Source of the DNA: Candidatus Omnitrophota bacterium
GTDB taxonomy: Bacteria > Omnitrophota > Gorgyraeia > JAHIPI01
Length of the DNA: 61,804 bases
Direction of reading: 5' to 3'
Assembly: GCA_018894435.1 (NCBI GenBank)
Contig: JAHIPI010000040.1
Location: forward strand, 1 to 61,804
Shown here: piece by piece, positions 18,539-58,681 of the stretch
How positions within the stretch are numbered: position 1 is the first letter of the stretch
Layout of the letters: each line of letters opens with the position of its first letter
Program-made: the position numbers and the translations under genes
Notes under the pieces: model-generated
What the model saw: only the letters and a program-made list of their open reading frames with translations
Told to the model about the DNA's origin: nothing
Databases searched by the model: none

Positions 18539-18567
18539 TTGACAATTATATTAGGATAATGTATACT
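18539..18567 (+). promoter_or_regulatory. sigma70-like promoter at the left edge of T4P module 1 (TTGACA-17 nt-TATACT)
   Basis: TTGACA at 18539-18544, TATACT at 18562-18567. About 130-nt structured leader before ATG 18701. Confidence 0.55.
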
Positions 18568-18700
18568 TGGGAGAACTGCCGAAGCTAACTTAGATCCTTC
18601 TCCGCCTTTGGCGGATCAGGATCAATTCGCACTTATAACTTATGTCGCACCCATGAATATCATTGCTCCGTAAGTTATGTGCTCATTGAGGAGCCCTAAA

Positions 18701-20110
18701 ATGGATTTTTTTAAAAAATTATCTCTTATTCCGCGCGGCCTCCGTTATAAACTTCTGATAGCTTTTTGCCTAATGTCCATAATCCCCCTTTTGGTTTCAC
18801 TGTATATGGTGCGGGATTACATCTTTCCTCCAAAAGGAGATATTCTAAGCCTCTCGTGGGTGCTCTTCTTCTGCGTGGTCATCACTTTTTTGGGATTGGT
18901 CTTGGCTAAACAGATGGTGGAACCCGTTATAGAGATGGCTATAGAGACGCGGCGTATTGCCGACGGCGATGTAAGTCACAAGCTAGAGATACGCACCGAA
19001 GACGAAATAGGGGACCTCGGCCGTTCCATTAACGAGATTACGCTTAACATAAGGGGAAAGATAGAGGAGTTAAAACTTTACGGCGAAGAAACAAAACTAA
19101 TGAATACCGAGATCCGCAAAAAAGTCCTTGTGCTCTCCAGCCTTCTTCAAATAGGTGAACATATCTCCAGTTTTGCGGAACTTGCGGATATCATGGACCT
19201 CATCACTGATAAAATATCCCATATAATCAATGCGGGATACGCAGTCCTTTTTCTTCAGAAACCGAACGATCCCACGACCCTTGAGGTCAATGCTTCCGCT
19301 AGTATTTCAAACGACAATCTCCGTCATCTTGAGATAAAAGTCGGTAAGGACCTTTTGGGAAGCGCCCTCATTAGCGGCATGCCGGTTTATTCCGACAGTA
19401 AAATAAAACCCTCAAAAGAGGTGCAGGATTTCCGGGAGGAAAATAATATAAAGAATTTCGCGGCGCTCCCCATAATATCGCGTAAAAAGGCGGTGGGGTT
19501 AATTTTGATAGGAAATGACGCCGAAGGTTTTGAATTTAAGGAAGATGACGCGGACGTCCTTAAGATATTTGCCAAGCAGGCCGCAATCGCCTATGAAAGC
19601 AGCATCTTGACAAAAAGGGCAAAGGAGCTGGAAATAAAAGACGACCTTACGGATCTCTATAACGAAAAATATATTGCCGAGCGCCTTGAGGAAGAGATAA
19701 GAAGGGCCGTTATTTGCCAACGGCCGTGTTCTTATATAGTCTTTAGTATAGACGACTTTGACAAATTCAGAACAGAAAACGGAGAATTGGCCACGGAAAA
19801 GGCGCTCAAAAAATTGGCATCAGCGTTTAATAGGCATGCTACAGAAATAGGAAGGGCTGCCCGCCTTTCCGGAGATTCCTTTGCGCTTTTGCTGCCCGAA
19901 AAGAATAAGCGCGAGGCATATAAGATCGCCGAAGATGTCAGAAGAGACGTGGAGAATATGGAACTGGAAAGCGAAAAGATAAGGCGCCTGACTATAAGCG
20001 GCGGGGTGAGCGAAAACCCCATAGACGGAATGAGCGCTGCCGAGTTGATGAGAAAAGCCGCCACAGGAGTGTCAGTAGCCAGAACGCAAGGTAAGAACAG
20101 AATAATCTAA
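18701..20110 (+). CDS. membrane HAMP-GAF-GGDEF protein with a degenerate GGDEF site (SGDSF)
   Basis: ATG 18701 is preferred (GAGGAG 8 nt upstream). Two N-terminal TM helices, HAMP (EDEIGDLGRSINEI), GAF-like middle. The GGDEF-domain motif reads RLSGDSFALLL, and upstream DLTDLYNEKY replaces the usual LTGL-NRR. Confidence 0.85.
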   Translation: MDFFKKLSLIPRGLRYKLLIAFCLMSIIPLLVSLYMVRDYIFPPKGDILSLSWVLFFCVVITFLGLVLAKQMVEPVIEMAIETRRIADGDVSHKLEIRTEDEIGDLGRSINEITLNIRGKIEELKLYGEETKLMNTEIRKKVLVLSSLLQIGEHISSFAELADIMDLITDKISHIINAGYAVLFLQKPNDPTTLEVNASASISNDNLRHLEIKVGKDLLGSALISGMPVYSDSKIKPSKEVQDFREENNIKNFAALPIISRKKAVGLILIGNDAEGFEFKEDDADVLKIFAKQAAIAYESSILTKRAKELEIKDDLTDLYNEKYIAERLEEEIRRAVICQRPCSYIVFSIDDFDKFRTENGELATEKALKKLASAFNRHATEIGRAARLSGDSFALLLPEKNKREAYKIAEDVRRDVENMELESEKIRRLTISGGVSENPIDGMSAAELMRKAATGVSVARTQGKNRII

Positions 20111-20283: not shown

Positions 20284-21348
20284 ATGAAAACCGATATGAA
20301 CGCGCTTCTTGAAATATTGATCGCAAAAGGGGCATCCGACCTGCACCTCTCCGTAAATTCGCCGCCCAAAATAAGAATAGACGAGAGACTGGTAAATGCA
20401 ACGAACGATATTCTATATCCTGAAGACACGAAAAATCTTGCCTATAGCATTCTGTCAAAGGAGCAGATAGCTATTTTTGAGAAGAACAAGGAGCTGGACC
20501 TCTCCTTTGAGCTTCCGAAAAAAGGAAGGTTCAGGGTAAATATCTTTCTCCAGAGGGGAAGTGTAGGAGTAGCCATAAGGATGATACCTTATGATATAAT
20601 GAGTTTTGAGGAATGCGGCCTTCCGGTAGATGTCGTTACTTCTTTCTGCAGAAAACCTAAAGGGCTCGTACTTGTTACCGGTGCTACAGGCCATGGAAAA
20701 TCCACCTCTTTGGCATCCATGATAGATTTTATAAACAAAGAGCGCGATTGCCACATAGTGACGATAGAGGATCCGATAGAATTTGTGCATAGCAATAAAA
20801 AGGCGATAATAGACCAAAGAGAGGTCCATTACGATACCTATTCATTCGGCTCTGCCCTTAAACACGTCCTTCGCCAGGATCCGGATGTCATACTAATAGG
20901 CGAAATGAGGGACCTTGAGACGATAGAAGCTGCGCTCATAATAGCTGAAACGGGCCATCTTGTATTCGCGACATTGCATACATCCGACAGCATCCAGACG
21001 ATCAATAGGATTATAGACGTTTTTCCGTCTCATCAGCAGCAGCAGATACGCACGCAGCTCTCTTTTGTGCTTTTGGGTGTACTTTCGCAGCAATTGGTGC
21101 CAAAAAAGACGCTGTCCGGACGAGTGCTCGCTACGGAGGTTCTGATAATAACGCCTGCCGTTCGTTCTCTAATAAGAGAATCGAAAGTCCATCAGATGTA
21201 TTCCAGCATACAGACCGGACTGAAAGAAGGCATGCGCACAATGAACCAGTCATTGTACGAATTACATAAGAACGGCCTTGTAAGTTACGAGGAATGCTTT
21301 GCAAGGACGCTTGACACTGAAGATCTTGGAAGGCTGTTCAAAAAATAA
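20284..21348 (+). CDS. pilT: type IV pilus retraction ATPase PilT
   Basis: AAGGAG RBS. Walker A TGATGHGKSTSL, VILIGEMRD, and the PilT signature AVRSLIRESK. 354 aa. Confidence 0.92.
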   Translation: MKTDMNALLEILIAKGASDLHLSVNSPPKIRIDERLVNATNDILYPEDTKNLAYSILSKEQIAIFEKNKELDLSFELPKKGRFRVNIFLQRGSVGVAIRMIPYDIMSFEECGLPVDVVTSFCRKPKGLVLVTGATGHGKSTSLASMIDFINKERDCHIVTIEDPIEFVHSNKKAIIDQREVHYDTYSFGSALKHVLRQDPDVILIGEMRDLETIEAALIIAETGHLVFATLHTSDSIQTINRIIDVFPSHQQQQIRTQLSFVLLGVLSQQLVPKKTLSGRVLATEVLIITPAVRSLIRESKVHQMYSSIQTGLKEGMRTMNQSLYELHKNGLVSYEECFARTLDTEDLGRLFKK

Positions 21349-21369: not shown

Positions 21370-21825
21370 ATGCTGCCCGGAAAAAGAGTGATATCAAAAC
21401 AATTGGGAGACCTTCTCATGGAGAGGGGCTTAATAACTAAGGAAGGCTTGGAGAAGGCCCTTAAGATACAGAAGGAAAAAGGCGGGCTCTTAGGCGATAT
21501 ACTTGTGAGTATGGGGTGCACCACGGAAGAACAGATAGCCCAAGCCATTACGGTTCAGTATGGTTTCCCTTATTTACCTTTAGTCAGTTATGAAATAGAG
21601 ACTAGGATTGTAGACATGATATCGGAAAACGTTGCAAGGCAATATTGCCTCATAGGTGTGGATAAAATAGGTGATACGCTTACTATAGCAATGGCAAACC
21701 CTCTTAATACGCAGGCAATAGAGGACATAGAGATGATATCGGGCTCACGGGTGCAGATATTTGTCAGCACGACGACTGATATCAAAAATGCAATCGATAA
21801 GTACTATAAGAAAAAAGTAAAATAG
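21370..21825 (+). CDS. stand-alone MshEN/T2SSE_N domain protein (PilB N-terminus without an ATPase)
   Basis: QLGDLLMERGLITKEGLEKALKIQ-KEKGG-LLGDILVSMGCTTEEQIAQAITVQ (tandem MshEN-like 24-mers), then a T2SSE_N-like LIGVDKIGDTLTIAMANPLN. 151 aa with no Walker motifs. Confidence 0.8.
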   Translation: MLPGKRVISKQLGDLLMERGLITKEGLEKALKIQKEKGGLLGDILVSMGCTTEEQIAQAITVQYGFPYLPLVSYEIETRIVDMISENVARQYCLIGVDKIGDTLTIAMANPLNTQAIEDIEMISGSRVQIFVSTTTDIKNAIDKYYKKKVK

Positions 21826-21865
21826 CTATCAGCTGAAAGCTGACAGCTGATAGCTGAAAGCTATA
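21824..21865 (+). repeat. heptanucleotide tandem array H1 (6 x AGCTNNN) filling the spacer from stop codon to pilB1 ATG
   Basis: AGCTATC AGCTGAA AGCTGAC AGCTGAT AGCTGAA AGCTATA, then A-ATG. The first unit overlaps stop TAG 21823-21825. Contains an 11-bp inverted repeat AGCTATCAGCT/AGCTGATAGCT. Confidence 0.9.
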
Positions 21866-21866
21866 A

Positions 21867-23600
21867 ATGGCCTTATCATTAAAAGAACGCCTTAATAAGA
21901 TATTGCTTGAGAAGGGGCTTATTACCGCCGAGAAGCTCAAAGAAGCGATTGGAATGCAGAGGGAAAAAGGCGGTAAGCTCAGCGATATTTTAATCAATAA
22001 CGGCCTTATCGACAGAAAAGACCTCATGGTTGTGCTCAGCGAGGAGCTGGGCATCCCTCCGATAAACCTCTCCCGCTACAAAATAGACCCGTCGTTAATA
22101 CAATTAGTCCCGCGTAAATTCGCATACCGCTACAAGATGCTCCCGATTTCCAGGATGGGCAACCTTCTTACGGTGGCAATGGCCGATCCGTTGAATATAT
22201 TCGCAGTAGATGAAATAAAAACGCTTACCGGTTTTCAGATAGGCATACTTATTACTACTGATAAGGATATGGACGAAGCCATCGACCAATATTACGGCGA
22301 AAGCGCGCACGAAGCGATAGAAGAGATCATGGAGGGCATGGATAAAGTCGGCAGGATAGAAATGGTGGAAGAAGGCGCCGAAACGAAGAAAGCGGATTCT
22401 ACCGACCTCGTCCGAATGACCCAAGAGACGCCCGTCGTCGCAATAACAAATCTGCTTCTTTCCGAGGCGGTGAAGATGAGGGCGAGCGATATATTAATAG
22501 AGCCCATGGAGCGGGTTTTGCGGGTGAGGTATCGCGTAGACGGCATGCTTAAAGAGGCAAAGAATCCGCCGCGGTCCATGCACGAAGCCATTGTATCAAG
22601 GTTAAAGGTCATGTCAAATCTTAATATTTCGGAGCGCCGTCTGCCGCAGGACGGAAGATTTAAAATAAGGATACAGAATAGAGAAGTGGATTTCAGGATA
22701 TCCGTTCTTCCGTCGAGCGAAGGCGAAAAGGCGGCCATGAGGATCCTTGATAAAAGCCAGGCGATGCTTGATGTAAATAAGCTTGGCTTTGAAGATGCGC
22801 CCCTCAATGATTTAAAAAGAGAAGCCGAGAGGCCTCACGGCATGATATTAGTTTGCGGGCCTACGGGTTGCGGCAAGACGACCACACTTTATTCCATATT
22901 AAAAAATATCGATTCACCGGAAAAAAATATAGTGACGGTAGAAGATCCGGTGGAATACGATCTGTACGGGATAAACCAGGTATCAATACGGCCGGAAATA
23001 GGCCTGACATTCGCGAAATCCTTAAGAAGCATCTTAAGGCAGGATCCCGACGTAATAATGGTCGGGGAGATAAGGGATTTTGATACCGCGGATATTGCCA
23101 TCAAATCGGCGCTTACGGGCCATTTGGTCTTAAGCACCCTCCATACGACGACTGCGCCGGGGGCGGTTATCAGGCTTGTGAATATGGGAGTAGAACCTTT
23201 TTTGATAACGTCTTCGGTGGTACTTGTCGGGGCTCAGCGCCTTGCAAGAAAAATATGCCCAAACTGTAAAGAGGAATACAAAATAGATAAGGCTGCGATA
23301 GAGAGATGCAATATTCAGGTAAGCGGGGAGCCTCTATTTTACCGCGGAAAAGGATGCAAGAATTGTATTAATACCGGATATAAAGGAAGAGTGGGCCTTA
23401 TGGAGACACTCGTCCTGACCCCAAAAATAAAGACATTGATAGCAAATAGGGCCCAGGAATATCAGATAAAAGAGGCGGCACGGCAAGAGGGCATGGTTAC
23501 TTTAAGAGAGAACGGTCTCAAGAAAGTACTGGCCGGTATTACGACATGGGAAGAAGTCATCAGGTTGACGACCGGCGACCAGGACATGGATACGGTGTAA
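21867..23600 (+). CDS. pilB: type IV pilus assembly ATPase PilB (paralog 1)
   Basis: N-terminal RLNKILLEKGLITAEKLKEAIGMQ (MshEN-like), T2SSE_N, Walker A GPTGCGKTTTLYS, Zn motif CPNCKEEY...CKNC. Confidence 0.92.
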   Translation: MALSLKERLNKILLEKGLITAEKLKEAIGMQREKGGKLSDILINNGLIDRKDLMVVLSEELGIPPINLSRYKIDPSLIQLVPRKFAYRYKMLPISRMGNLLTVAMADPLNIFAVDEIKTLTGFQIGILITTDKDMDEAIDQYYGESAHEAIEEIMEGMDKVGRIEMVEEGAETKKADSTDLVRMTQETPVVAITNLLLSEAVKMRASDILIEPMERVLRVRYRVDGMLKEAKNPPRSMHEAIVSRLKVMSNLNISERRLPQDGRFKIRIQNREVDFRISVLPSSEGEKAAMRILDKSQAMLDVNKLGFEDAPLNDLKREAERPHGMILVCGPTGCGKTTTLYSILKNIDSPEKNIVTVEDPVEYDLYGINQVSIRPEIGLTFAKSLRSILRQDPDVIMVGEIRDFDTADIAIKSALTGHLVLSTLHTTTAPGAVIRLVNMGVEPFLITSSVVLVGAQRLARKICPNCKEEYKIDKAAIERCNIQVSGEPLFYRGKGCKNCINTGYKGRVGLMETLVLTPKIKTLIANRAQEYQIKEAARQEGMVTLRENGLKKVLAGITTWEEVIRLTTGDQDMDTV

Positions 23601-23603
23601 CAA

Positions 23604-25322
23604 ATGGCAAAATCGCTTAAAGACAGACTAGTGGAAGTACTCCTGGACAGCAAGCTCATCACCAAAGAGCAGCTTGACAAGGCGCTTAAGATGCAGAAGA
23701 AGGAGAAGTCCAATATAGGCGAGGTCCTGGTAAAAGAGGGCTTTATTACCCAAAAGGACCTGATGATAATACTGAGCCGCGAGCTCAATATCCCGCCGAT
23801 GAATCTCGCGAGATACAAGATCAGTCCCGATGTCATAAAACTCATACCCGAACGGATCGCAAAGCAGTATCATCTTCTTCCGGTGGCAATATTAGGCAAT
23901 ACCCTTACTTTGGCAATGAGCGACCCGCTCAATATATTCGCTATAGACGACATAAGAATGCTTACCAAGTTTGACATTGATCCGGTACTTGCCACAGAGA
24001 GTGATATAAAGGAAGCGATAAATATTTATTACGGTACCGCAAGCACGGAAATGTCGCAGATATTGGAGGATGCGAAAGAAAAGGAAGGAGAGTTAGAAGT
24101 AGTAGAGCACGAAGATATAGATATATCCCGCCTTACCGAAGAAAGCAAAAAAGCGCCCATAGTCAAAATGGTGGACCTTATGCTGGCGGAGGCGTTGAAA
24201 AAACGCGCGAGCGATATCCATATAGAACCGTGTGAGCGCGAATTGCGGATACGATACAGGATCGACGGCGCGCTTCATGAAGCCCTGACGCTTCCCAAGA
24301 AGAATCAAAATGCCGTATTGGCCAGATTGAAAATAATGTCAAAACTGGATATAACCGAGTCCCGGCTTCCTCAGGACGGAAGATTTAAGATACGCCTTGA
24401 AGGAAGAGAAGTGGATTTCAGGGTCTCTGTCCTACCCGTCTCCTACGGAAGCAAGGTGGTGCTGAGGGCACTTGATAAAAGCAGCTTGGGCGTCGGACTT
24501 GATAAATTGGGTTTTCTTAAAGAAGAACTCGAGAGGTTTGAAGAGGGCCTCAAGAGGCCTTATGGCATGTTGCTTCTCACGGGACCGACGGGATGCGGCA
24601 AATCTACGACTCTTTATTCTATACTTAACAAACTTAATACACCGGAGAAGAATATCATAACAGTCGAAGACCCCGTGGAGTATCAGGTCGAAGGAATTAC
24701 GCAAATTCCCGTCAACGCCGATATCGGGCTTACTTTTTCAGCAGGCTTAAGAGGGCTTCTAAGGCAGAGTCCGGATATTATAATGGTGGGAGAAATAAGG
24801 GATTTCGAAACGGCGGACATAGCCATTAAGGCATCTTTAACGGGCGAACTTGTGCTGAGTACTTTGCATACTAATGACGCGCCCGGCGCTATTACGCGAT
24901 TGATCGATATGGGGGTAGAGCCGTTTCTCGTTGCTTCAAGTATCGTCCTTACAGCCGCGCAGAGGTTATGCAGGCGTATATGTCCGCACTGTAAAGAAGA
25001 AGCGGATATACCTATGGCCGTACTGGAGAGAGTATGGATTAATAAGGCAGAAATGGATAAGCTGAAAGGAAAGAAGTTCTTCAAGGGCCGCGGCTGTCCC
25101 AAATGTAATAATACGGGTTACTACGGCCGGATGGGGACATTGGAAGTCCTTATAATAGACGATGCTATAAGAGACATGATTATAAAATGCGTCCCGGCTG
25201 ATCAATTAAAGGACTATGCCGTTAAACACGGTATGTCCACATTGAGGGATAACGCGCTTAAAAAGTTTATTAACGGCGATACGACGCTGGAGGAAGTGCT
25301 GAGGATTACGACGGTAGAATAG
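23604..25322 (+). CDS. pilB: type IV pilus assembly ATPase PilB (paralog 2, tandem)
   Basis: Begins 3 nt after paralog 1. RLVEVLLDSKLITKEQLDKALKMQ, GPTGCGKSTTLYS, CPHCKEE...CPKC. Confidence 0.92.
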   Translation: MAKSLKDRLVEVLLDSKLITKEQLDKALKMQKKEKSNIGEVLVKEGFITQKDLMIILSRELNIPPMNLARYKISPDVIKLIPERIAKQYHLLPVAILGNTLTLAMSDPLNIFAIDDIRMLTKFDIDPVLATESDIKEAINIYYGTASTEMSQILEDAKEKEGELEVVEHEDIDISRLTEESKKAPIVKMVDLMLAEALKKRASDIHIEPCERELRIRYRIDGALHEALTLPKKNQNAVLARLKIMSKLDITESRLPQDGRFKIRLEGREVDFRVSVLPVSYGSKVVLRALDKSSLGVGLDKLGFLKEELERFEEGLKRPYGMLLLTGPTGCGKSTTLYSILNKLNTPEKNIITVEDPVEYQVEGITQIPVNADIGLTFSAGLRGLLRQSPDIIMVGEIRDFETADIAIKASLTGELVLSTLHTNDAPGAITRLIDMGVEPFLVASSIVLTAAQRLCRRICPHCKEEADIPMAVLERVWINKAEMDKLKGKKFFKGRGCPKCNNTGYYGRMGTLEVLIIDDAIRDMIIKCVPADQLKDYAVKHGMSTLRDNALKKFINGDTTLEEVLRITTVE

Positions 25323-25340: not shown

Positions 25341-26555
25341 ATGGCATTATACAAGTATGTCGCGAAGAATACAAGCGGTCAGACCGTAACAGGGGTCTTA
25401 GATGCTCCGGACAGGGCCCTTTTAATCGGCAAGCTGAGAGAAAAAGATCTTGTCATAGTCTCTATTGCGGAAGCAAAGACGAGCATAACGCAACAGGGCG
25501 GGTTTTTTCAGCGTAGATCTGTAAATATAGATGATATGGTCATATTTTCGAGGCAGCTTGCCACTATGGTAGATGCGGGTATTCCCCTTGTCGGCGCGCT
25601 TGACATATTGGGCGAACAGATGGAGAACAAGACTTTTTCGGAGGTCATTTTGAATGTGAGGGATAATGTGGAGACGGGCTCAAGCCTCTCCGAGGCACTT
25701 TCAAAATATCCGAAGACATTCTCCACCCTATTCGTGAATATGGTGAAGGCCGGCGAATCAAGCGGTATGTTAGACGAGATACTGGACAGGGTGGCGACTT
25801 ATCTGGAAAAGACGAGCATACTGCAGAGAAAGATAAAATCGGCATTGATATACCCCGCGGTTATAACTTTCATGGCCATAGTCATTACAATTATTCTCCT
25901 TGTTAAAGTCATACCGGTCTTTAAAGATATATTCGCCGGTTTCGGCGCGGCATTGCCCCGCCCGACTCAGGTCTTGATTGATTTAAGCGATTTTTTGCGT
26001 AAGTATTTCTTTTTCGGCGTTGGCTTTCTAGTAATTATGATTTTTCTCCTTATTCGGTATATAAATACCGAAAAAGGGCGCCTCAGATTCGATACCATAA
26101 CGCTTACCATGCCCATATTCGGGATACTTCTTCGCAAAGTCGCGGTCAGCAAATTTACGCGCACCCTCTCCACCCTCGTAAAAAGCGGTGTGCCCATTTT
26201 GAGCTCGCTTGAGATAGTCGGCAAAACATCGGGCAATAAGCTTATAGAAAAGGCAGTGGTAAGTATAAGGTCCAGCATAAGGGAGGGGGAAAATATAGCA
26301 GAGCCGCTTGCTAAAAGTAAGGTATTCCCACCCATGGTCGTCAGGATGATTTCGGTAGGGGAGCAAACGGGCGAGCTTGAAAAGATGCTCTCAAAGATAG
26401 CTGACTTCTACGACGCGCAGGTAGATGCCGCTGTCACCGGCCTGACAAGCATGATAGAGCCCCTGATCATTGCCTTTTTGGGCATAGTAATCGGCACAAT
26501 CGTTATCTGTATGTTCCTGCCAATATTCAAGATATCGACGATTATAAATATGTAA
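25341..26555 (+). CDS. pilC: type IV pilus platform protein PilC (T2SSF family)
   Basis: GGAGGG RBS. Duplicated T2SSF repeats FSRQLATMVDAGIPL and FTRTLSTLVKSGVPIL. Three TM segments. Confidence 0.93.
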   Translation: MALYKYVAKNTSGQTVTGVLDAPDRALLIGKLREKDLVIVSIAEAKTSITQQGGFFQRRSVNIDDMVIFSRQLATMVDAGIPLVGALDILGEQMENKTFSEVILNVRDNVETGSSLSEALSKYPKTFSTLFVNMVKAGESSGMLDEILDRVATYLEKTSILQRKIKSALIYPAVITFMAIVITIILLVKVIPVFKDIFAGFGAALPRPTQVLIDLSDFLRKYFFFGVGFLVIMIFLLIRYINTEKGRLRFDTITLTMPIFGILLRKVAVSKFTRTLSTLVKSGVPILSSLEIVGKTSGNKLIEKAVVSIRSSIREGENIAEPLAKSKVFPPMVVRMISVGEQTGELEKMLSKIADFYDAQVDAAVTGLTSMIEPLIIAFLGIVIGTIVICMFLPIFKISTIINM

Positions 26556-26774: not shown

Positions 26775-27116
26775 ATGTTATGGCTAAATAGGAAAGGTTT
26801 TACGCTCGTTGAAATTATGATAGTTGTCGCAATTATAGGTTTATTGGCGGCTATAGCTATTCCTAACTTCGTGAAAGCCAGAGAGACGGCGCAGGCCAAT
26901 GCCTGTATCAATAACATGAGGCAGATAGAGTCCGCGAAGGAGCAATGGGCGCTTGAGAAAGGCAAGACCACAGGCGATGTTGTTGTTGATGCCGAGGCTG
27001 CGCTTTATATCAAGGGCGGTATGCCTACTTGCCCAGCAGCTGGTACGTATACTGTTGGTGTCGTTGGCACTGATGTTATTTGCTCACTTGCAGCAAAGGG
27101 CCACGTATTGCCGTAA
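26775..27116 (+). CDS. pilA: type IV pilin (probable major pilin)
   Basis: Class III signal peptide MLWLNRKG|FTLVEIMIVVAIIGLLAAIAIPNF with Glu at +5. C-terminal Cys pair CPAAGTYTVGVVGTDVIC. Strong terminator follows. Confidence 0.9.
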   Translation: MLWLNRKGFTLVEIMIVVAIIGLLAAIAIPNFVKARETAQANACINNMRQIESAKEQWALEKGKTTGDVVVDAEAALYIKGGMPTCPAAGTYTVGVVGTDVICSLAAKGHVLP

Positions 27117-27161
27117 TCGTTAGTTAGTAATAGTCGGCTAATTGCGAGTATTGTAAGTGAA

Positions 27162-27199
27162 AGAGCGATAGGTTGGTATTTACCTGTCGCTCTTTTTTT
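27162..27199 (+). terminator. intrinsic terminator after pilin 1
   Basis: AGAGCGATAGG (27162-27172) / CCTGTCGCTCT (27183-27193): 11-bp stem with one G-U, 10-nt loop, T-run to 27199. Confidence 0.8.
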
Positions 27200-27217
27200 A
27201 AGAAAAGTCAATATCCC

Positions 27218-27246
27218 TTGACAAAAGTAGTTATGTATGGTATTTA
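27218..27246 (+). promoter_or_regulatory. sigma70-like promoter for pilin 2 (TTGACA-17 nt-TGGTATTTA)
   Basis: TTGACA at 27218-27223, TATTTA at 27241-27246. Shares TGTATGGTAT with the pilin 1 promoter. Confidence 0.5.
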
Positions 27247-27304
27247 TTAAGTGATAATAATTTACTGTAATTATACTTCTATAAAGGCGTTGAAAGCCGA
27301 AAGA

Positions 27305-27661
27305 ATGTTGACTGTAAAAAATAAAGCAGGTTACACGTTAGTCGAGCTGATGATCGCGGTCATAATCATCGGCGTTTTAGCAAGCATAGCTTTACCCAAT
27401 TATTATAAAACGCGAATCGGTACCAGAAAAGGCATCTGCATGAATAACCTGCGCCAGATAGAAGCGGCGGTCGATAGATGGGTATTTGAGAACGATATCG
27501 ACGAGGGTTATTCGGTCACTCAGGGCGACGAAGACGAGATCTATGTCTACCTAAAGAACGGTAAACCCGAGTGCCCCGCCCGCGGGATTTACACAATAAG
27601 CGCGATAGGTACCTATCCGCAGATTAGTTGCAGTGTAGAAGGTCACGTACTAGCGCAATAA
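27305..27661 (+). CDS. type IV pilin paralog
   Basis: Start moved to ATG 27305: MLTVKNKAG|YTLVELMIAVIIIGVLASIALPNY. NNLRQIEAAVDRW is parallel to NNMRQIESAKEQW of pilin 1. C-terminal CPARGIYT...ISC. Confidence 0.85.
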   Translation: MLTVKNKAGYTLVELMIAVIIIGVLASIALPNYYKTRIGTRKGICMNNLRQIEAAVDRWVFENDIDEGYSVTQGDEDEIYVYLKNGKPECPARGIYTISAIGTYPQISCSVEGHVLAQ

Positions 27662-27789
27662 TTTTTATAACGTTCTTAAAACGGCATAAGCGTGGAAATA
27701 AATAGAAACGCGTTTGTAAAAGGTGCACTCATTTTACCGCAAAATTCATGTCCGGGTTCCGAGTAAATCAAAATCATTTAAGGTGAGGG

Positions 27790-28815
27790 ATGGGTCTATT
27801 CAGCGCATTTATTAAAACAGGCAAAGATCATATAGGCATAGATATTGGCTCTCATTCTGTCAAGACGGTGGAGCTTGTTAAGGAAAAGGACATCTTTCGG
27901 ATAAAGAATATGGGCTACGCAAGGGTAAAGAAGGCAAATTCTGCGGAAAGTCTCTTGGAAGCGATAAGCGAATCGGTCTCTATGGCCAAGATAGCGCCCA
28001 ATAAGGATGTTAATGTTGCGATATCCGGCTCGTCTGTAGTGGTGCGTTTCATAGAGCTGCCGCGCATGAATGAGGACGAGCTTAAGAACGCGATAATTTT
28101 TGAAGCTGAAAAATATATACCCTTTAGCGTGAATGACGTAATAATAGACCATCAACTTATTATTCCGCATTTAGCGGATAATAAGATGCTGGTGCTCCTC
28201 ATAGCGGCAAAGAAAGATGTTATTAATGAAAGGCTGGAAATTATAAATAAGGCCGGTTTATCAGTCAACATTATAGACGTGGTATCCCTTGCCGGCGTGA
28301 ATGCATTTTTGACTACGGCTGGGCGCAAAAAGGATGAAGTGGCTGCTATCATTAACGTGGGCGCAAAGGGGACCGATATAAGCATAGTTTCGGACGACAC
28401 TTTGTATTTTACCCGAAGTGTGCAGATAGGCGGGAACGATCTTACAAAAGCGCTTTCGGATTCTTTATCATTGGGCCAGAAGGAAGCGGAAGAGCTCAAG
28501 GTAAACCCCGGCGAGAGAGCCCGAGAGGTAAGCGAATGCGTAAAGACGGTGCTCTATACTATTGCCGATGAGATACGCCTTTCATTCAGCTATTATGAAA
28601 ACCAGTCCGGGCGAAATATAGGAAGGATTTATCTGAGCGGTGGTACGGCGAAGGGCATGAATATCGGCGATATACTGCATGAACGCCTGGATGTGGACGT
28701 AGAACTATGGGAACCTAGTGTATCTATGGCGATGGAGAGCCCCATTAAAAAAGAGTTGGCGGATTCGCTAAAATATCAGATGAGCACGGCAATAGGCCTT
28801 GCTCTAAGGCGATAA
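27790..28815 (+). CDS. pilM: type IV pilus assembly protein PilM (actin-like ATPase fold)
   Basis: IGIDIGSHSVKTVEL, 341 aa, followed by pilN and pilO. Confidence 0.9.
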   Translation: MGLFSAFIKTGKDHIGIDIGSHSVKTVELVKEKDIFRIKNMGYARVKKANSAESLLEAISESVSMAKIAPNKDVNVAISGSSVVVRFIELPRMNEDELKNAIIFEAEKYIPFSVNDVIIDHQLIIPHLADNKMLVLLIAAKKDVINERLEIINKAGLSVNIIDVVSLAGVNAFLTTAGRKKDEVAAIINVGAKGTDISIVSDDTLYFTRSVQIGGNDLTKALSDSLSLGQKEAEELKVNPGERAREVSECVKTVLYTIADEIRLSFSYYENQSGRNIGRIYLSGGTAKGMNIGDILHERLDVDVELWEPSVSMAMESPIKKELADSLKYQMSTAIGLALRR

Positions 28816-28819
28816 TCAT

Positions 28820-29473
28820 ATGATAGAGATCAATTTACTGCCTCATGAAATCAAAAGGAAGAGAAGAAAGATAGAGCTTCCTGATATATCTTTCCTGCCT
28901 GTGCTCGCCGGCTTTCTGGGGGTTATAATCATAATCCATCTCTTTGTCGGGCTTATGGTGGCAATGAAAGCCAAGACCTTCAAAGGGCTTGAGCGAAAAT
29001 GGCAGTCTGTTTTACCAAACAAGGAGGAAGCGGATAATATAAAGGCGGAACTTACCAGCACGAGGACTAAAATAGACACCATAGACAAGCTTATAGAAAC
29101 GAGACGCAGTTGGGCGGTCAGGCTTAATGATATCAGTGATTCTATGATACCCGGCGTATGGCTTAATAAGCTCTGGCTGGAGAAGCGGGTTATTATACAG
29201 GAAGCGTCGTCGGCAAAAATCAATTCCGGAGAAGGCGCCGCTAAAGCAGCGAAAGAACCCAAAAAGACGATAATAAGGACTTTGCATTTAAACGGCAGCG
29301 TTATTGCCGGAGGCGGGGAAGAGACTGCCGTTATCGGTAAATTTATAAGAAGCCTTAAAGATAACAAGAATTTTATGCCGGATTTCAGCGATATAGAATC
29401 GGCCTCAATACAGCGGACTAAATTGAAGGACGCGGAAGTAATGGACTTCGAGCTTATTTGCTATTTTAAATAG
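28820..29473 (+). CDS. pilN: type IV pilus assembly protein PilN
   Basis: MIEINLLP start, single TM LPVLAGFLGVIIIIHLFVGLMV, gene order. Confidence 0.85.
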   Translation: MIEINLLPHEIKRKRRKIELPDISFLPVLAGFLGVIIIIHLFVGLMVAMKAKTFKGLERKWQSVLPNKEEADNIKAELTSTRTKIDTIDKLIETRRSWAVRLNDISDSMIPGVWLNKLWLEKRVIIQEASSAKINSGEGAAKAAKEPKKTIIRTLHLNGSVIAGGGEETAVIGKFIRSLKDNKNFMPDFSDIESASIQRTKLKDAEVMDFELICYFK

Positions 29474-29477
29474 AAAT

Positions 29478-29540
29478 AGCTCTCAGCCATCAGCTCTCAG
29501 CTATCAGCTGAAAGCTGACGACTGAAAGCTGAAAGCTGAA
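29478..29540 (+). repeat. heptanucleotide tandem array H2 (9 units) filling the pilN-pilO spacer
   Basis: AGCTCTC AGCCATC AGCTCTC AGCTATC AGCTGAA AGCTGAC GACTGAA AGCTGAA AGCTGAA, then A-ATG. The 21-nt AGCTATCAGCTGAAAGCTGAC is identical to H1. Confidence 0.9.
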
Positions 29541-29541
29541 A

Positions 29542-30132
29542 ATGGACATGGATTTTTTGAAAAAAGCAAAGAAGAACGAAATATTAGCCCTTACCGGATT
29601 AATATGCGCCGGCATACTCGTGGGCTATTTTCTGCTTTTCTTGAATCCGATGCTGTCAAAGTTATTTGACGTTTCGCGCAAAGTCGCCAAGCTGCAAAGC
29701 GATCTTTCCATCGCGGAACTATCTATAGACAGCATGCCTAAGATGAAAAAAGAGATAGCCGACCTAAAAAATAAGGCGTTAAGCTATATTAATAAACTTC
29801 CAAAAGAAGAGGAGCTGCCGGCGCTTCTGGAAAGCCTTTCTATGATGGCTCAGGGTGCGGATGTCAAGATAACGAAAATAGTGCCCATAAAAGATACAGA
29901 AGTTGTAAAAGACGCCAAAACTCCCAAGGCCAGTATATATGAGGAAAAGGGCATACTGGTACATGCGCAGTGCGGATACCACCAGTTAGGTACGTTTATC
30001 GCGCAGCTTGAAAATGCCGAGCGGTTTATGGATATATCCGACATCACTATAGAGAGTATTAGGACCACGCCTAAACGGCATAATGTCCAGCTTATAGTCA
30101 AGACGTTTGTCTTAAAGGATAAAACCAAATGA
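29542..30132 (+). CDS. pilO: type IV pilus assembly protein PilO
   Basis: N-terminal TM, a coiled coil, and a C-terminal ferredoxin-like segment (GYHQLGTFIAQLEN). Gene order. Confidence 0.8.
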   Translation: MDMDFLKKAKKNEILALTGLICAGILVGYFLLFLNPMLSKLFDVSRKVAKLQSDLSIAELSIDSMPKMKKEIADLKNKALSYINKLPKEEELPALLESLSMMAQGADVKITKIVPIKDTEVVKDAKTPKASIYEEKGILVHAQCGYHQLGTFIAQLENAERFMDISDITIESIRTTPKRHNVQLIVKTFVLKDKTK

Positions 30133-30497
30133 GAAAACAGGCAGCTTTAACGAGCGCAATTTTTTTTATTTTTCTCTTTCTCGTCCCTGCCGAAGGCCAG
30201 GTATATAAGTATTACAGTAAGGGCAAAAGAGACCCCTTTATACCCCTAGTAACCGGCGAAGTAAGGACAAGTTTGGGGCTACAGGCGGTGGAGGATATAG
30301 ACGACGTAAGGTTAGAGGGCGTAATATTTGACCCTAACGGCAAATCCATAGTAGTGCTGAACGACGAGATCCTAAAGGAAGGGGATAAGATGTATAATGT
30401 GGAAGTGCTGAAGATTACTAAGGATTCAGTTACTATAAAGGTCCATGACAGGATGCATACGATCAGCCTGGTCGAGGAAGGAGGCAAGGAGAGTTGA
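30129..30497 (+). CDS. pilP: PilP-like periplasmic pilus assembly protein
   Basis: Signal peptide, RDPFIPL motif, small beta-domain. ATGA overlap with pilO. Confidence 0.65.
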   Translation: MRKQAALTSAIFFIFLFLVPAEGQVYKYYSKGKRDPFIPLVTGEVRTSLGLQAVEDIDDVRLEGVIFDPNGKSIVVLNDEILKEGDKMYNVEVLKITKDSVTIKVHDRMHTISLVEEGGKES

Positions 30498-32122
30498 AGA
30501 AAAAAATAATATTTTTAGGCGTCTTACTCACATTTTTTATAGCAATAAACGGAAATTTGCATTCCCGGGCCGAGGATGTAACCGGGGGTTCGTTTCTCAC
30601 AGAGGCTCCCGCAATTGACGCAGAGAATGGCGCGGATGCGGCTCAGACAGGGCCGCCGGCCGACACACAAGCGGAACCGGAGATAGAGGCCTCAAAAGAA
30701 AAGTCCGAATATGATATGATGAGCGAAAGGATAGCCCCGGGAAACATAACGGTAGATTTCAAAGAAGCGGACATACGGACGGTGCTTCGCATTCTCTCCG
30801 AAAAAAGCGGGGTGAATATAGTGGCTAGTAAAGATGTTGCGGGAACGATAACCATTCGCTTAAATAACGTATATTGGGAAAAGGCGCTTGATATTATCTG
30901 CAAGAATTACGGCTATGCCTTTGAGCGGGACGGAAATATTATCAGGGTGACGACCGTAGAAAATTTGAAGCAGGAAGAATTGACCACGGAAGTCTTTTCC
31001 CTGAATTATGCAAATGCGGAAGATGTCGCAGTGGCCGTAGCGGAGATGCTTAGCTCGCGCGGCAAGGATAAAGTAAAGTTTGACGAGAGAACGAACGTAT
31101 TGATAGTGACCGACATACCTACAAACCTCTATAAAATAAGGCAGGTTGTGGATAAGCTGGATAAGAGGACGCCGCAGGTCCTGATAGAAGCCAAGATTAT
31201 AGAGACGACGCTTGTTGATACTGAAAATCTCGGGATAGACTGGACCGTGAAATTGTCGGCCTACGGTGCAAAGAGGCCGATAACGTTTCCGTTTACCGTA
31301 TCAGGCACATTGTCTTATTTGGGCATACCAAAAGACATGTGGAATACTTTTATGCCGAGGGTCGAAGGTACTACCGACACGACAACCACCGGTTCAGGCG
31401 GGGTCACTGTTACCGATACAGATAGTTTTTTTCCTATTGAGTTGGGACAATTTAGGCAATGGAGCGATTCGCCGTTTCCCCTTACGGAGGCGGATCAATT
31501 TACGTTCGGCACGCTTGACTTTTCGCAATTTTCGCTTGTCCTTGAATATCTGAAATCGCGCCGGGATACTAATGTTCTTTCAAATCCGCGGATTGCCACA
31601 TTGAATAACCAGGAAGCAAATATACTTGTCGGCACCATATTGGCTATACCGAAGTTTGAGAGAAACCCCGACACCGGCACGATGGAAGTGACGGGTTATA
31701 CCGAAAAGGATCTCGGTATCAAGCTGAACGTAATACCGCATATAAACGCTTCGGGCGATATAGTGGTGGATCTCAGGCCTGAGATCTCTGATTTGCTCGG
31801 GTTTGATACGCTTGACGCGTCAAGGGGGCTGGTAGCGCCTAGATATTCAACGAGGGAGGCAACGACCCAGATAATGGTCAGGGACGGCGAGACTATTATG
31901 ATAGGCGGTCTTATAAGAGAAAACACGGTCAATTACAAGAAGAAGGTTCCCTGGTTGGGAGACATACCCGTCCTGGGAAGGGCGCTGTTTACAAAGACGG
32001 AAGAAACCATTCAGAAGACGGAGCTGATCATATTTATGACTGTTCATCTAATAAATAGCGATACGTCCGATTTTGGCCTGGTTCCTTCTTCGGCTCTTGT
32101 TCCGATGCCCGCTAAGAAGTGA
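30494..32122 (+). CDS. pilQ: type IV pilus secretin PilQ
   Basis: TTG start overlapping the pilP stop. Signal peptide, N0-like ITVDFKEADIRTVLRILSEKSGVNIV, secretin signature KVPWLGDIPVLGRALF. Confidence 0.9.
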   Translation: MKKKIIFLGVLLTFFIAINGNLHSRAEDVTGGSFLTEAPAIDAENGADAAQTGPPADTQAEPEIEASKEKSEYDMMSERIAPGNITVDFKEADIRTVLRILSEKSGVNIVASKDVAGTITIRLNNVYWEKALDIICKNYGYAFERDGNIIRVTTVENLKQEELTTEVFSLNYANAEDVAVAVAEMLSSRGKDKVKFDERTNVLIVTDIPTNLYKIRQVVDKLDKRTPQVLIEAKIIETTLVDTENLGIDWTVKLSAYGAKRPITFPFTVSGTLSYLGIPKDMWNTFMPRVEGTTDTTTTGSGGVTVTDTDSFFPIELGQFRQWSDSPFPLTEADQFTFGTLDFSQFSLVLEYLKSRRDTNVLSNPRIATLNNQEANILVGTILAIPKFERNPDTGTMEVTGYTEKDLGIKLNVIPHINASGDIVVDLRPEISDLLGFDTLDASRGLVAPRYSTREATTQIMVRDGETIMIGGLIRENTVNYKKKVPWLGDIPVLGRALFTKTEETIQKTELIIFMTVHLINSDTSDFGLVPSSALVPMPAKK

Positions 32123-55835: not shown

Positions 55836-57545
55836 ATGCCGATAAAACCCGAAATAATCGAAGAGATGCTTAAAGGGACCGGGCTCCTTCGCGCCGACGA
55901 GATAAAGGATGCCCTTCGCCTCCAGCGCGATACAAGAGAACGGCTCGGACTTATTTTTTTAAGGAAGGGTAGTATATCGGACGAAAATATAAGAAGCGTC
56001 GTTACCGCTCAGATAGGCATCGAAACCGAAAAGACAGAAAACCTGAAGATAGAGTCTGATACTTTAAGAAAAGTTCCGGTGACCTTTGCCCACCACCACC
56101 GCGTAATCCCCGTAAAATTCGAGAACGATACCCTTACCGTCGCAACGGATAACCCGTTTAATTTTCTTGCGTTCGGCAACTTTAAAATTTTCCTCGGTTA
56201 TAAAATAGAAGGTATTCTTACCACCGGGCAGGATCTGGATGATTTGCTGGAAAAGTATTACGGATTAAAAGAAGGCGCGCCCATTGACGCGCTGGTAGCG
56301 GGTATGGATACCCGTAAGAAGATAACGCTGAGAGAGATTGAAGAAGAAAAGGCTCGGCCGATATCAAAAGAAGAGGAGACGCCCGTAGTCAAGCTGGTAG
56401 GCCTTCTTATAGCCGAAGCCTTTAAGAAAAGAGCAAGCGATGTCCATATAGAACCCCTCGAAAACAAATTTCGTATAAGGTATAGGATCGACGGCGTGCT
56501 TCATGAAGTGCCCGGCCCTCCTAAAAGATTACAGGCCTCGGTCATAAGCAGAGTTAAGATAATGGCCGGAATGGACATAGCGGAAAAGAGGCTCCCGCAG
56601 GACGGAAGGATCAGGATAGAGATAGGCGGTAAAGAATTGGACCTCAGGGTCTCAACCCTTCCCGCCATATACGGCGAAAGCGTAGTCTTGCGAATATTGG
56701 ATAAATCCAGCTTCCTGCTTGGGTTGAAAGAGCTGGGATTTATGCCTGAGGATGAGAAGAGATTCGAACGCCTTATAAAAGCGCCTAACGGCATACTTCT
56801 TGTTACGGGGCCTACAGGCAGTGGTAAGACGACGACTCTTTACGCCTCGCTTAGCCACATAAATAAACCTGACAGAAAACTGATCACGGTTGAAGATCCG
56901 GTTGAATATCAGATAAGCGGCATAAACCAGGTGCAGGTCAAGCCGCAGATAAACCTTACATTTGCCATGGGACTGAGGAGCATATTGCGCCAGGCCCCCG
57001 ACGTAATAATGGTGGGCGAAATAAGAGATTTTGAGACAGCGCAGATAGCGATACAGGCAGCGCTCACCGGCCATCTTGTTTTTTCGACCTTGCACACAAA
57101 TGATGCGCCCGGGGCGGTGACCAGGTTGATAGATATGGGCATTAAGCCCTATCTTGTCGCCTCGGCCCTTCAGGCAGTACTAGCCCAGCGGCTTGTCAGG
57201 GTGATATGCCCCAACTGCAAAGAAGAATACGATCCCAGTAAGGAAGAGATAGCGGCGCTGAATCTCAAGCCGGAACAATTGAAAAAAGCTAAATTTTTTA
57301 GAGGAAAAGGGTGCGACGAATGCGGTAATAGCGGTTATCGGGGCAGGATAGGTATTTTTGAATTACTAATAATGACTGATGAGGTGCGGGAGATGATATT
57401 TGAAAAGGCCTCGAGCAGCACGCTAAAGGAAAAGGCAAAGAATTTCGGGATGGCGACTCTTAGAGAAGACGGAGTGAGGAAGGTGCTAAAAGGCATGACC
57501 ACTGTATCGGAAGTAATGAGAGTAACGCAGCAGGATGTGGTTTGA
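55836..57545 (+). CDS. GspE/PilB-class secretion ATPase (paralog 3)
   Basis: GPTGSGKTTTLYA, CPNCKEEY...CDEC. The N-terminal second half-motif RLGLIFLRKGSISDENIRSVVTAQ is MshEN-like. Confidence 0.9.
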   Translation: MPIKPEIIEEMLKGTGLLRADEIKDALRLQRDTRERLGLIFLRKGSISDENIRSVVTAQIGIETEKTENLKIESDTLRKVPVTFAHHHRVIPVKFENDTLTVATDNPFNFLAFGNFKIFLGYKIEGILTTGQDLDDLLEKYYGLKEGAPIDALVAGMDTRKKITLREIEEEKARPISKEEETPVVKLVGLLIAEAFKKRASDVHIEPLENKFRIRYRIDGVLHEVPGPPKRLQASVISRVKIMAGMDIAEKRLPQDGRIRIEIGGKELDLRVSTLPAIYGESVVLRILDKSSFLLGLKELGFMPEDEKRFERLIKAPNGILLVTGPTGSGKTTTLYASLSHINKPDRKLITVEDPVEYQISGINQVQVKPQINLTFAMGLRSILRQAPDVIMVGEIRDFETAQIAIQAALTGHLVFSTLHTNDAPGAVTRLIDMGIKPYLVASALQAVLAQRLVRVICPNCKEEYDPSKEEIAALNLKPEQLKKAKFFRGKGCDECGNSGYRGRIGIFELLIMTDEVREMIFEKASSSTLKEKAKNFGMATLREDGVRKVLKGMTTVSEVMRVTQQDVV

Positions 57546-57616: not shown

Positions 57617-58681
57617 ATGGAAATAGATCAACTTTTACAAATATGTATCGAACGTAACGCGTCAGATATCCATCTTACCGTAGGAAAGCCACCTACCCTG
57701 AGGGTGGACGGTATGTTGGATCCGCTGGATTATAATCCTCTTTCGGCAAACGATACGGAAGCGCTCATCAAATCGATAACAAGCGAAAGTCATCTTCAGA
57801 AAGTCCAGAAGTTCGGAGGAGCAGATTTTGGCTTGAGTTTCGGCGATGTCGCGAGATTCCGCGTCTCTGTCTATAAGCAGAAAGGATACTGGGGGACATC
57901 GCTCCGGCTTATTCCCTCCAAGCTGCTTACATTTGAGGAGATAGGCCTGCCGCTTAGCGTAAAAGAACTTTTGCATAGGCCGAGGGGTCTTATACTTGTA
58001 ACGGGCCCCACAGGCGGCGGAAAGACGTCGACCTTGGCATCTATGACCGACTATGTAAATACTAACCGCGATGCTCATATCATAACCATAGAAGACCCGA
58101 TAGAATATTACCACGAGCATAAAAGAGGCATCATCACACAGCGCGAACTGGGGGTTGACGTATATTCTTTCAGCGAGGCGATAGTAAGGGGCCTAAGGAT
58201 GAACCCCGACGTTATACTTGTGGGAGAGATGCGCGATTTGGCTACCATAGAAGCCGCTATTCTGGCGGCGGAAACCGGCCATCTCGTTCTTGCGACGCTC
58301 CATACTACAAGCGCAGCCCAGACAGTGGATAGAATCATAAATGTGTTTCCTCCGCAGCAGCAGGAGCAGGTAAGAATGCAGCTATCTACTTCTATCCTTG
58401 CCATATTCTGCCAGCAGCTTCTTATAAAAGCGACTAAAAAAGGAAGGGTCGCGGCGTTTGAAATAATGATCACGACCTCGTCTATACAGAACCTTATACG
58501 CGAGAAGAAGACATTCCGCATAACATCCGATATTCAGACGGGGGCAAAATACGGGATGAAGACATTTGACTCATCCCTCGTAGAGCTATACCAGCGCAAC
58601 CTTATAGATTATGAGACGATGCTCCTAAAAGCATTTGAACCCGATCAGATTGAATTGCGGTTTCAAAAGGGGAGGAAATGA
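57617..58681 (+). CDS. pilT: type IV pilus retraction ATPase PilT (paralog 2)
   Basis: Start moved to ATG 57617 (GGAGG upstream). GPTGGGKTSTLAS, VILVGEMRD, SIQNLIREKK. Confidence 0.92.
   Translation: MEIDQLLQICIERNASDIHLTVGKPPTLRVDGMLDPLDYNPLSANDTEALIKSITSESHLQKVQKFGGADFGLSFGDVARFRVSVYKQKGYWGTSLRLIPSKLLTFEEIGLPLSVKELLHRPRGLILVTGPTGGGKTSTLASMTDYVNTNRDAHIITIEDPIEYYHEHKRGIITQRELGVDVYSFSEAIVRGLRMNPDVILVGEMRDLATIEAAILAAETGHLVLATLHTTSAAQTVDRIINVFPPQQQEQVRMQLSTSILAIFCQQLLIKATKKGRVAAFEIMITTSSIQNLIREKKTFRITSDIQTGAKYGMKTFDSSLVELYQRNLIDYETMLLKAFEPDQIELRFQKGRK

Follow-up and report, generated by a model that had tools for sequence, protein, structure and literature searches.

A stand-alone MshEN protein as a candidate trans-acting c-di-GMP receptor beside paired PilB motors in Omnitrophota

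MshEN is one of two or three widespread receptor domains for the second messenger cyclic di-guanosine monophosphate (c-di-GMP) and, to our knowledge, has been studied almost only as the cis-acting N-terminus of ATPases or glycosyltransferases. In Vibrio cholerae MshE (Protein Data Bank (PDB) entry 5HTL) and in the GSPII-B domain of Thermus thermophilus PilF (PDB 8PDK), the domain has a two-subdomain fold and a motif of 24+5+24 residues, and is fused in cis to a T2SSE ATPase. Here we analyse a 61,804-nucleotide (nt) stretch of DNA from a Candidatus Omnitrophota bacterium (hereafter referred to as the window), in which a gene at positions 21370–21825 of the + strand encodes the same fold and motif as a separate protein of 151 residues (hereafter referred to as P0001), located beside two genes for PilB extension ATPases (PilB1 and PilB2). 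P0001 shares the Gly, Leu and Gln contact positions with MshE and PilF GSPII-B, and the first residue of its second motif is Leu, as it is in PilF GSPII-B, a domain of very high affinity (PMC11731258). We propose that P0001 is probably a trans-acting c-di-GMP receptor of the PilB1/PilB2 type IVa pilus motor module, a reading in which the ligand and the partner are inferred from sequence, predicted fold and gene order.

Both ATPase-less MshEN-type proteins and the control of PilB by c-di-GMP in trans are already known. FimX is a trans-acting c-di-GMP sensor that is tied to PilB directly in Pseudomonas aeruginosa and through PilZ in Xanthomonas citri (PMC8389850, PMC5595344), and P. aeruginosa PilB is itself listed as a c-di-GMP non-binder (PMC11656802; Wang et al. 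2016, Supplementary Table 4). The FimX–PilZ–PilB system is the closest functional analogy to the present locus, as both comprise a trans sensor and a degenerate GGDEF-containing protein. However, P0001 contains no PilZ or EAL domain detectable with Pfam and NCBIfam profiles, the sensor is paralogous to the N-domain of the motor itself, the protein with the degenerate GGDEF domain is a HAMP–GAF membrane protein, and the interaction with PilB is here a predicted one. Among ATPase-less proteins, P. aeruginosa PA3740 consists of MshEN_N and a highly diverged T2SSE_N1, is reported to bind c-di-GMP and is linked to swarming, and Cyanothece cce_1044 is an (MshEN_N)2 protein with no N1 part (Wang et al. 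2016, Supplementary Table 4). Compared by description, both resemble P0001 in consisting of MshEN-type modules only, but neither is reported in that study as a member of a pilB operon. Escherichia coli NfrB offers a further parallel, as its MshEN domain is paired with a dedicated cyclase, DgcJ, in local c-di-GMP signalling (PMC8669469), and an MshEN receptor thus stands alongside a specific GGDEF protein in both cases; unlike in our locus, however, DgcJ is active and the NfrB MshEN domain is fused to a glycosyltransferase. The plain MshEN-only architecture is absent from Table S4 of Wang et al. 2016, stand-alone MshEN proteins are unmentioned in a 2024 review of PilB cofactors (PMC11656802), and our literature search found no description of a stand-alone MshEN protein as a PilB cofactor. 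What the present locus would add is a phylum-wide, single-origin stand-alone MshEN protein beside motors that lack key residues, which would constitute a natural 'split' sensor–motor pair.

The gene for P0001 begins with an ATG codon, with an AAGGAG Shine–Dalgarno sequence 5 nt 5′ of the start, and was characterized by its open reading frame (ORF) and translation, Pfam, NF053729, AlphaFold2 and Foldseek. The four-helix bundle MshEN_N at the N-terminus (residues 11–63; 21400–21558, + strand) carries two 24-residue c-di-GMP motifs, QLGDLLMERGLITKEGLEKALKIQ (motif I, residues 11–34) and LLGDILVSMGCTTEEQIAQAITVQ (motif II, residues 40–63), separated by the spacer KEKGG (residues 35–39), exactly as quoted in a first-pass annotation made from the DNA letters. 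It is followed by an MshEN_C/T2SSE_N1 α/β subdomain, the presumed docking part (21559–21813, + strand), which was delineated by the Pfam match and a genome search. The Pfam model PF05157 (MshEN) matches residues 64–148 (59.8 bits against a cut-off of 23.1, E value 2.6e-16). NF053729 ('c-di-GMP_motif'), a curated NCBIfam model of 53 positions (24+5+24), scores 66.2 bits (cut-off 38), with residues 11–63 covering profile positions 1–53 in full; at 66–68 bits, P0001 tops all seven MshEN proteins of the genome. The Pfam profile search found no T2SSE/ATPase match (PF00437) in P0001, and the PilB model TIGR02538 reaches only profile positions 2–139, with 78 bits against a cut-off of 676. A partial match is given by NF008411 (NfrB). 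P0001 is thus a complete MshEN domain and not a PilB, and the description of it in the first-pass annotation as a PilB N-terminus devoid of the ATPase, located between pilT and two pilB genes, is borne out by these hidden Markov model (HMM) searches and by the gene order.

An AlphaFold2 model of P0001, built on 66 family members, consists of four helices followed by an α/β unit and has a mean predicted local distance difference test score (pLDDT) of 88.8 and a predicted template modelling score (pTM) of 0.80. A Foldseek search of the PDB with this model returned MshE with c-di-GMP (5HTL) as the top match (E value 2.9e-12, template modelling (TM) score 0.71/0.76), followed by PilF GSPII-A (TM 0.82), PilF GSPII-B with c-di-GMP and X. 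citri PilB-N/PilZ (7LKM); entry 9G1W has a TM score of 0.82, and 2BH1 and 4PHT are weak matches. A sequence search of the PDB aligned P0001 residues 8–146 with MshE residues 6–145 in a gap-free +2 register. In this register, MshE Leu10, Gly11, Asp12, Leu25, Leu29, Gln32, Leu39, Gly40, Asp41 and Gln61 are identical in P0001, Leu54 and Leu58 are replaced by Ile, and Arg9 and Arg38 correspond to Gln11 and Leu40, respectively.

A length-restricted homology search with P0001 retrieved 2053 short relatives, the best 120 of which form a tight cluster at 148–153 residues and a second group at 212–221 residues; the named relatives come from metagenome-assembled genomes of Candidatus Omnitrophota. In a survey of 301 sampled genomes of the phylum with an ortholog threshold of E <= 1e-30, orthologs were present in at least 194 genomes (178 of 248 high-quality genomes), and all of the matches listed lie within open frames of about 145–250 residues. 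Some of the survey negatives encode a divergent copy, 151 residues long and about 33% identical, whose gene runs into the start of PilB1. In the other classes of the phylum, the best match is a short frame of 156–209 residues in 23/23 sampled genomes, and in several of them this frame directly adjoins PilB-size genes. A maximum-likelihood tree of 92 N-domains places every stand-alone copy in one clade (support 100/96), which takes in the divergent copies and a double-bundle variant and is separate from the sister clades of the PilB1 and PilB2 N-domains. The single supported clade indicates a single ancient origin, and the stand-alone MshEN protein is thus a genuine, anciently detached domain.

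We compared motif integrity at 25 orthologous loci, scoring eleven key positions per 24-mer in 27 stand-alone, 26 PilB1 and 26 PilB2 copies. All stand-alone copies (27/27) have Gly3 and Gln24 in motif I and motif II alike, and the two motifs of P0001 match the key positions at 10/11 and 9/11. Position 1 of motif II is Leu in nearly all stand-alone copies; Leu at this place raises the affinity of PilF GSPII-B, and the consensus has been extended to (R/K/L)LG... on this account (PMC11731258). Lys10, which directly precedes motif I, is nearly invariant in the family. By contrast with these copies, the PilB1 orthologs have replaced the motif I Gly in 24/26 cases and the terminal Gln of motif II (by Glu, Gly and others) in 26/26, and the PilB2 orthologs have replaced the motif I Gly in 26/26. 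In the window, PilB1 carries Asn for the motif I Gly, Ser for the motif II Gly and Glu for the final Gln, and PilB2 carries Val for the motif I Gly and Glu for the final Gln of motif II. Substitutions of this kind have measured effects in other systems: V. cholerae MshE has no detectable c-di-GMP binding with G11L and 72-fold weaker binding with G40I (PMC5013675 supplement), G11V, the same change as in the window PilB2, is among the changes in the non-binder XpsE (PMC5013675), and PilF has a lower affinity for c-di-GMP when it carries Q190E and no longer binds it when it carries Q190E together with Q218E (PMC11731258). The MshEN motifs of PilB1 and PilB2 have thus lost key residues, and a loss of c-di-GMP binding is predicted for them. 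Mean pairwise identities, computed across the same 23 genomes for all regions, are 61% for the whole stand-alone protein, 59% for its MshEN_N bundle and 62% for its MshEN_C; the corresponding values are 47% for the PilB1 and 37% for the PilB2 MshEN_N bundle, 62–65% for the PilB ATPase cores and 58% for PilC. The erosion of the PilB1 and PilB2 motifs, like the catalytic degeneracy of the upstream GGDEF protein, was missed in the first-pass annotation.

The genes of the window are ordered PBP2, RodA, radical-SAM protein, HAMP–GAF–GGDEF protein, PilT, stand-alone MshEN, PilB1, PilB2, PilC, two pilins, PilM, likely PilN, PilO and secretin. The module begins with a membrane HAMP–GAF protein that has a degenerate GGDEF domain (18677–20110, + strand; assigned by Pfam, translation and an alignment of 24 orthologs), and the best sigma-70-like promoter match (11/12), a consensus match only, lies 5′ of this gene (18539–18567, + strand). 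The retraction ATPase PilT (20284–21348, + strand; Pfam) ends 21 nt upstream of the stand-alone gene, which is followed by the extension ATPases PilB1, with its eroded MshEN motifs (21867–23600, + strand), and PilB2 (23604–25322, + strand), and by the platform protein PilC (25341–26555, + strand). The pilins, PilM, likely PilN, PilO and PilQ (secretin) are encoded 3′ of PilC (26775–32122). The order degenerate GGDEF–(PilT)–stand-alone MshEN–PilB1–PilB2–PilC recurs in 25/25 loci. PilT is optional at this position (10/25 loci), 23/25 loci have the GGDEF-like gene upstream of the stand-alone gene, and PilB1–PilB2 always lie directly 3′ of the latter, which also holds for the divergent lineage and for other classes. 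In most genomes, tiny gaps or overlaps, the latter often of 1–20 nt, flank the stand-alone gene on both sides, an arrangement that fits one operon.

In the GGDEF-like protein of the window, the active site reads SGDSF, and the ND, GH, GD and RxxD motifs are missing. An alignment against the genome's own cyclases showed that the domain is degenerate in 24/24 orthologs, with ND..GH..GD kept in none; a role as the local source of c-di-GMP, in the style of DgcJ–NfrB, was rejected on this ground. The family keeps its own SGGVSENP(I/L)DG motif near the C-terminus, whose conservation suggests a non-enzymatic role. Canonical GGEEF cyclases with ND/GH/GD kept are encoded elsewhere in the genome, on contigs C67 and C90. 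The organism is therefore probably able to make c-di-GMP, with a source other than the GGDEF protein of the operon.

On this basis, we propose the following model. The two intact 24-residue motifs of P0001 would most likely bind one c-di-GMP, and its conserved N1-type subdomain would attach it either to the base of the pilus or to the motors, so that P0001 would couple the level of the second messenger to the paired extension ATPases PilB1 and PilB2, whose own motifs have lost key residues for binding. The membrane HAMP–GAF protein with the dead GGDEF domain probably works with P0001, as signal input or anchor. Ligand binding, the docking partner and the sense of the effect, activating or inhibitory, are the parts of the model that we infer. 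In MshE, MshEN_C/N1 is dispensable for c-di-GMP binding, and the MshEN_N bundle on its own is no weaker a binder than the complete domain (PMC5013675); the N1 subdomain binds GspL in type II secretion homologs and is thought to contact the PilM stator in PilB (PMC11656802). That MshEN_C is unneeded for binding and yet conserved (62%, compared with 59% for the bundle) points to a docking function, and, among the three roles raised in the first-pass annotation (sponge, decoy and adaptor), favours an adaptor or competitor role of P0001 over a plain sponge.

Several observations weigh against this model. Position 1 of motif I, which is Gln in P0001, varies among Q/T/H/L/P/N across the stand-alone orthologs and lies outside the published R/K/L consensus, whereas the motif II Leu fits it; binding by P0001 is a prediction. 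The divergent f12 lineage has Arg or Lys in place of the final Gln of motif I. A PilF GSPII-A domain with a restored consensus motif still fails to bind (PMC12002112), and since a consensus-perfect GSPII can fail to bind, sequence alone is no proof of binding. The NF053729 HMM likewise failed as proof that PilB1 and PilB2 are c-di-GMP-blind: their scores of 52.4 and 54.9 bits, respectively, are both above the cut-off, and the predicted loss of binding therefore rests on the individual substitutions. Finally, the idea that the stand-alone gene and the PilB1–PilB2 tandem strictly require each other was not upheld, owing to one of the seven genomes without the stand-alone gene that we examined. 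The other six have no PilB1/PilB2-type tandem either, and five of them (G031, G069, G109, G155 and G205) encode a PilB with intact motifs. The seventh, G197, keeps the tandem with eroded motifs but lacks both the stand-alone and the GGDEF-like gene; on its contig C39 (L041, L043, L046), the radical-SAM gene is directly followed by PilB1–PilB2, and the genome also encodes a separate PilB with intact motifs. Its congener G195 (L010) has both of the genes missing from G197, and the motors of the two genomes adjoin in the tree, which indicates that the joint gene loss is recent. The protein is thus an accessory rather than a core component, dispensable for the motors at least in that lineage.

Four other explanations were weighed. 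In the first, P0001 is what a frameshift or truncation has left of a pilB gene, or is an artefact of assembly, and short MshEN-only ORFs of the fragment type do exist. Outside the phylum, we looked at one control lineage, using a Geobacter PilB N-domain as the query with the same length restriction, and this search returned mostly variable-length fragments, many of them labelled 'partial'; in three control contexts, from fragmented assemblies, the MshEN piece is directly followed by ATPase pieces. The window is unlike these fragments. Downstream of P0001, PilB1 has a complete MshEN N-terminus of its own, and there is therefore no ATPase remnant, in agreement with the first-pass annotation, which had argued against a frameshifted pilB. 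P0001 is no more than 34% and 37% identical to the N-terminal regions of PilB1 and PilB2, respectively, both of which contain complete MshEN domains, the length is steady at 148–153 residues across hundreds of genomes, and the stand-alone copies form one supported clade. Given this low identity, steady length, gene order and single clade, we regard the remnant as ruled out, its probability being negligible. A ligand-independent role is, in our view, unlikely. P0001 would in that case be an N1-domain decoy or assembly factor that fills the PilM/PilN (GspL-like) socket or pairs with the PilB N-domains whatever the c-di-GMP level, and would thereby set motor stoichiometry or block extension. The strong conservation of MshEN_C/N1, the docking of N1 domains of T2SS ATPases on GspL (PMC11656802, with the weak matches to 2BH1 and 4PHT), the non-consensus first residue of motif I and the lack of a guarantee of binding by a restored consensus (PMC12002112) are all in keeping with it. 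However, Gly3 and Gln24 are invariant across the phylum and drift in PilB1 and PilB2, which is hard to explain without ligand binding, and evolution has produced a variant in which the MshEN_N bundle is doubled in tandem.

The remaining two alternatives concern the partner. The main partner could be the degenerate HAMP–GAF–GGDEF sensor or PilT rather than the PilBs, with P0001 serving, for example, as a c-di-GMP-controlled output subunit of the sensor or as an N-domain in trans for the N1-less PilT. We regard this as rather improbable. The stop and start codons of the GGDEF-like and stand-alone genes often overlap where the former lies 5′, the two genes are jointly missing in G197, and PilT is directly 5′ in the window as in the other loci that have it there; however, 15/25 loci have no PilT at this position, L009 and L023 have the stand-alone gene but no GGDEF-like gene, and it is PilB1–PilB2 that always follow the former directly downstream. 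A role as a sponge or buffer of c-di-GMP, without any specific partner protein, for which the intact motifs of the high-affinity type, the small size of the protein and an early operon position that could allow high expression would speak, is in our view very unlikely: MshEN_N alone suffices for binding (PMC5013675), so that a sponge would not need the conserved MshEN_C, and the strict place of the gene beside the motors argues for a specific target.

The proposed receptor role may be extended to a more speculative scheme, which we hold with low confidence, in which c-di-GMP sensing in Omnitrophota has moved off the motor and the detachable MshEN subunit has become a second-messenger-gated motor selector. 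A high-affinity MshEN subunit would be common to two non-equivalent PilBs with ligand-blind docking N-domains, the catalytically dead GGDEF membrane sensor may hold or release this subunit, and the choice of the motor that engages the one PilC/PilM platform, whether PilB1, PilB2 or PilT, would fall to the subunit. A trans-acting receptor of this type would offer a clean system for the role of N1/MshEN at the pilus base, which is flagged as open in PMC11656802, and would provide an initial entry point to the control of pili by c-di-GMP in the Omnitrophota, a phylum whose members are uncultured and have small genomes.

The same genome encodes further MshEN proteins. A second pilus cluster in the window (55836–57545 and 58678–60396) contains PilB3, with a failed motif I, and PilB4, with fully intact motifs. 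The NF053729 scores of PilB4 (65.6 bits), PilB2 and PilB1 are above the cut-off, and the statement in the first-pass annotation that related tandem motifs are present in all four PilB-class proteins holds for these three in terms of score, but not for PilB3 (33 bits), nor, with regard to the key Gly and Gln residues, for PilB1 and PilB2. The intact motifs of PilB4 alongside a stand-alone MshEN protein suggest that the same cell may sense c-di-GMP both in cis and in trans. Another contig (G000:C75:15354–16253, + strand) encodes a second ATPase-less MshEN protein of about 278 residues, in which MshEN is fused to PilZ; with scores of 42.7 bits for PF05157, 45.2 bits for PF07238 and 64.7 bits for NF053729, this single protein carries c-di-GMP receptor modules of two kinds.

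The stand-alone family itself also varies in architecture. The double-bundle variant (212–221 residues), exemplified by L002:8001–8639 and L003:1479–2117 and represented by P0060 and about 16 others, has two complete MshEN_N bundles ahead of MshEN_C and two NF053729 stretches that total 105 bits; there is a 4-nt overlap of its gene with the stop of the GGDEF-like gene, and PilT is absent from between the two. Locus L017 has, besides the usual copy, a second, divergent stand-alone MshEN gene (L017:5306–5764, − strand; 152 residues) between PilB2 and PilC, a basal branch of the stand-alone clade in the tree. Outside the phylum, in the Desulfuromonadota-like pilB–pilT–pilC regions L050, L051 and L052, which lie on long contigs, the genes are split into small MshEN, ATPase and PilC ORFs, most likely by assembly indel errors; short MshEN-only database entries from such error-prone assemblies should not be counted as stand-alone genes.

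The spacer between the stand-alone gene and pilB1 contains an AGCTGAA heptamer array and a 13-base-pair (bp) hairpin (21823–21862, no strand assigned; Tandem Repeats Finder (TRF) and folding). The array, which the first-pass annotation had noted directly after the stop codon, has a period of 7 and 4.6 copies (21831–21862, TRF), within the 41-nt spacer that follows the stop. The 13-bp hairpin has a folding energy of −22.9 kcal/mol (z −3.4) and no T-run on the + strand, and no Shine–Dalgarno sequence precedes pilB1 in the window. The array was not found in the spacers of the 25 orthologous loci, and a part for it in the function of the stand-alone gene was rejected on this ground. A second heptamer array is located at 29478–29541.

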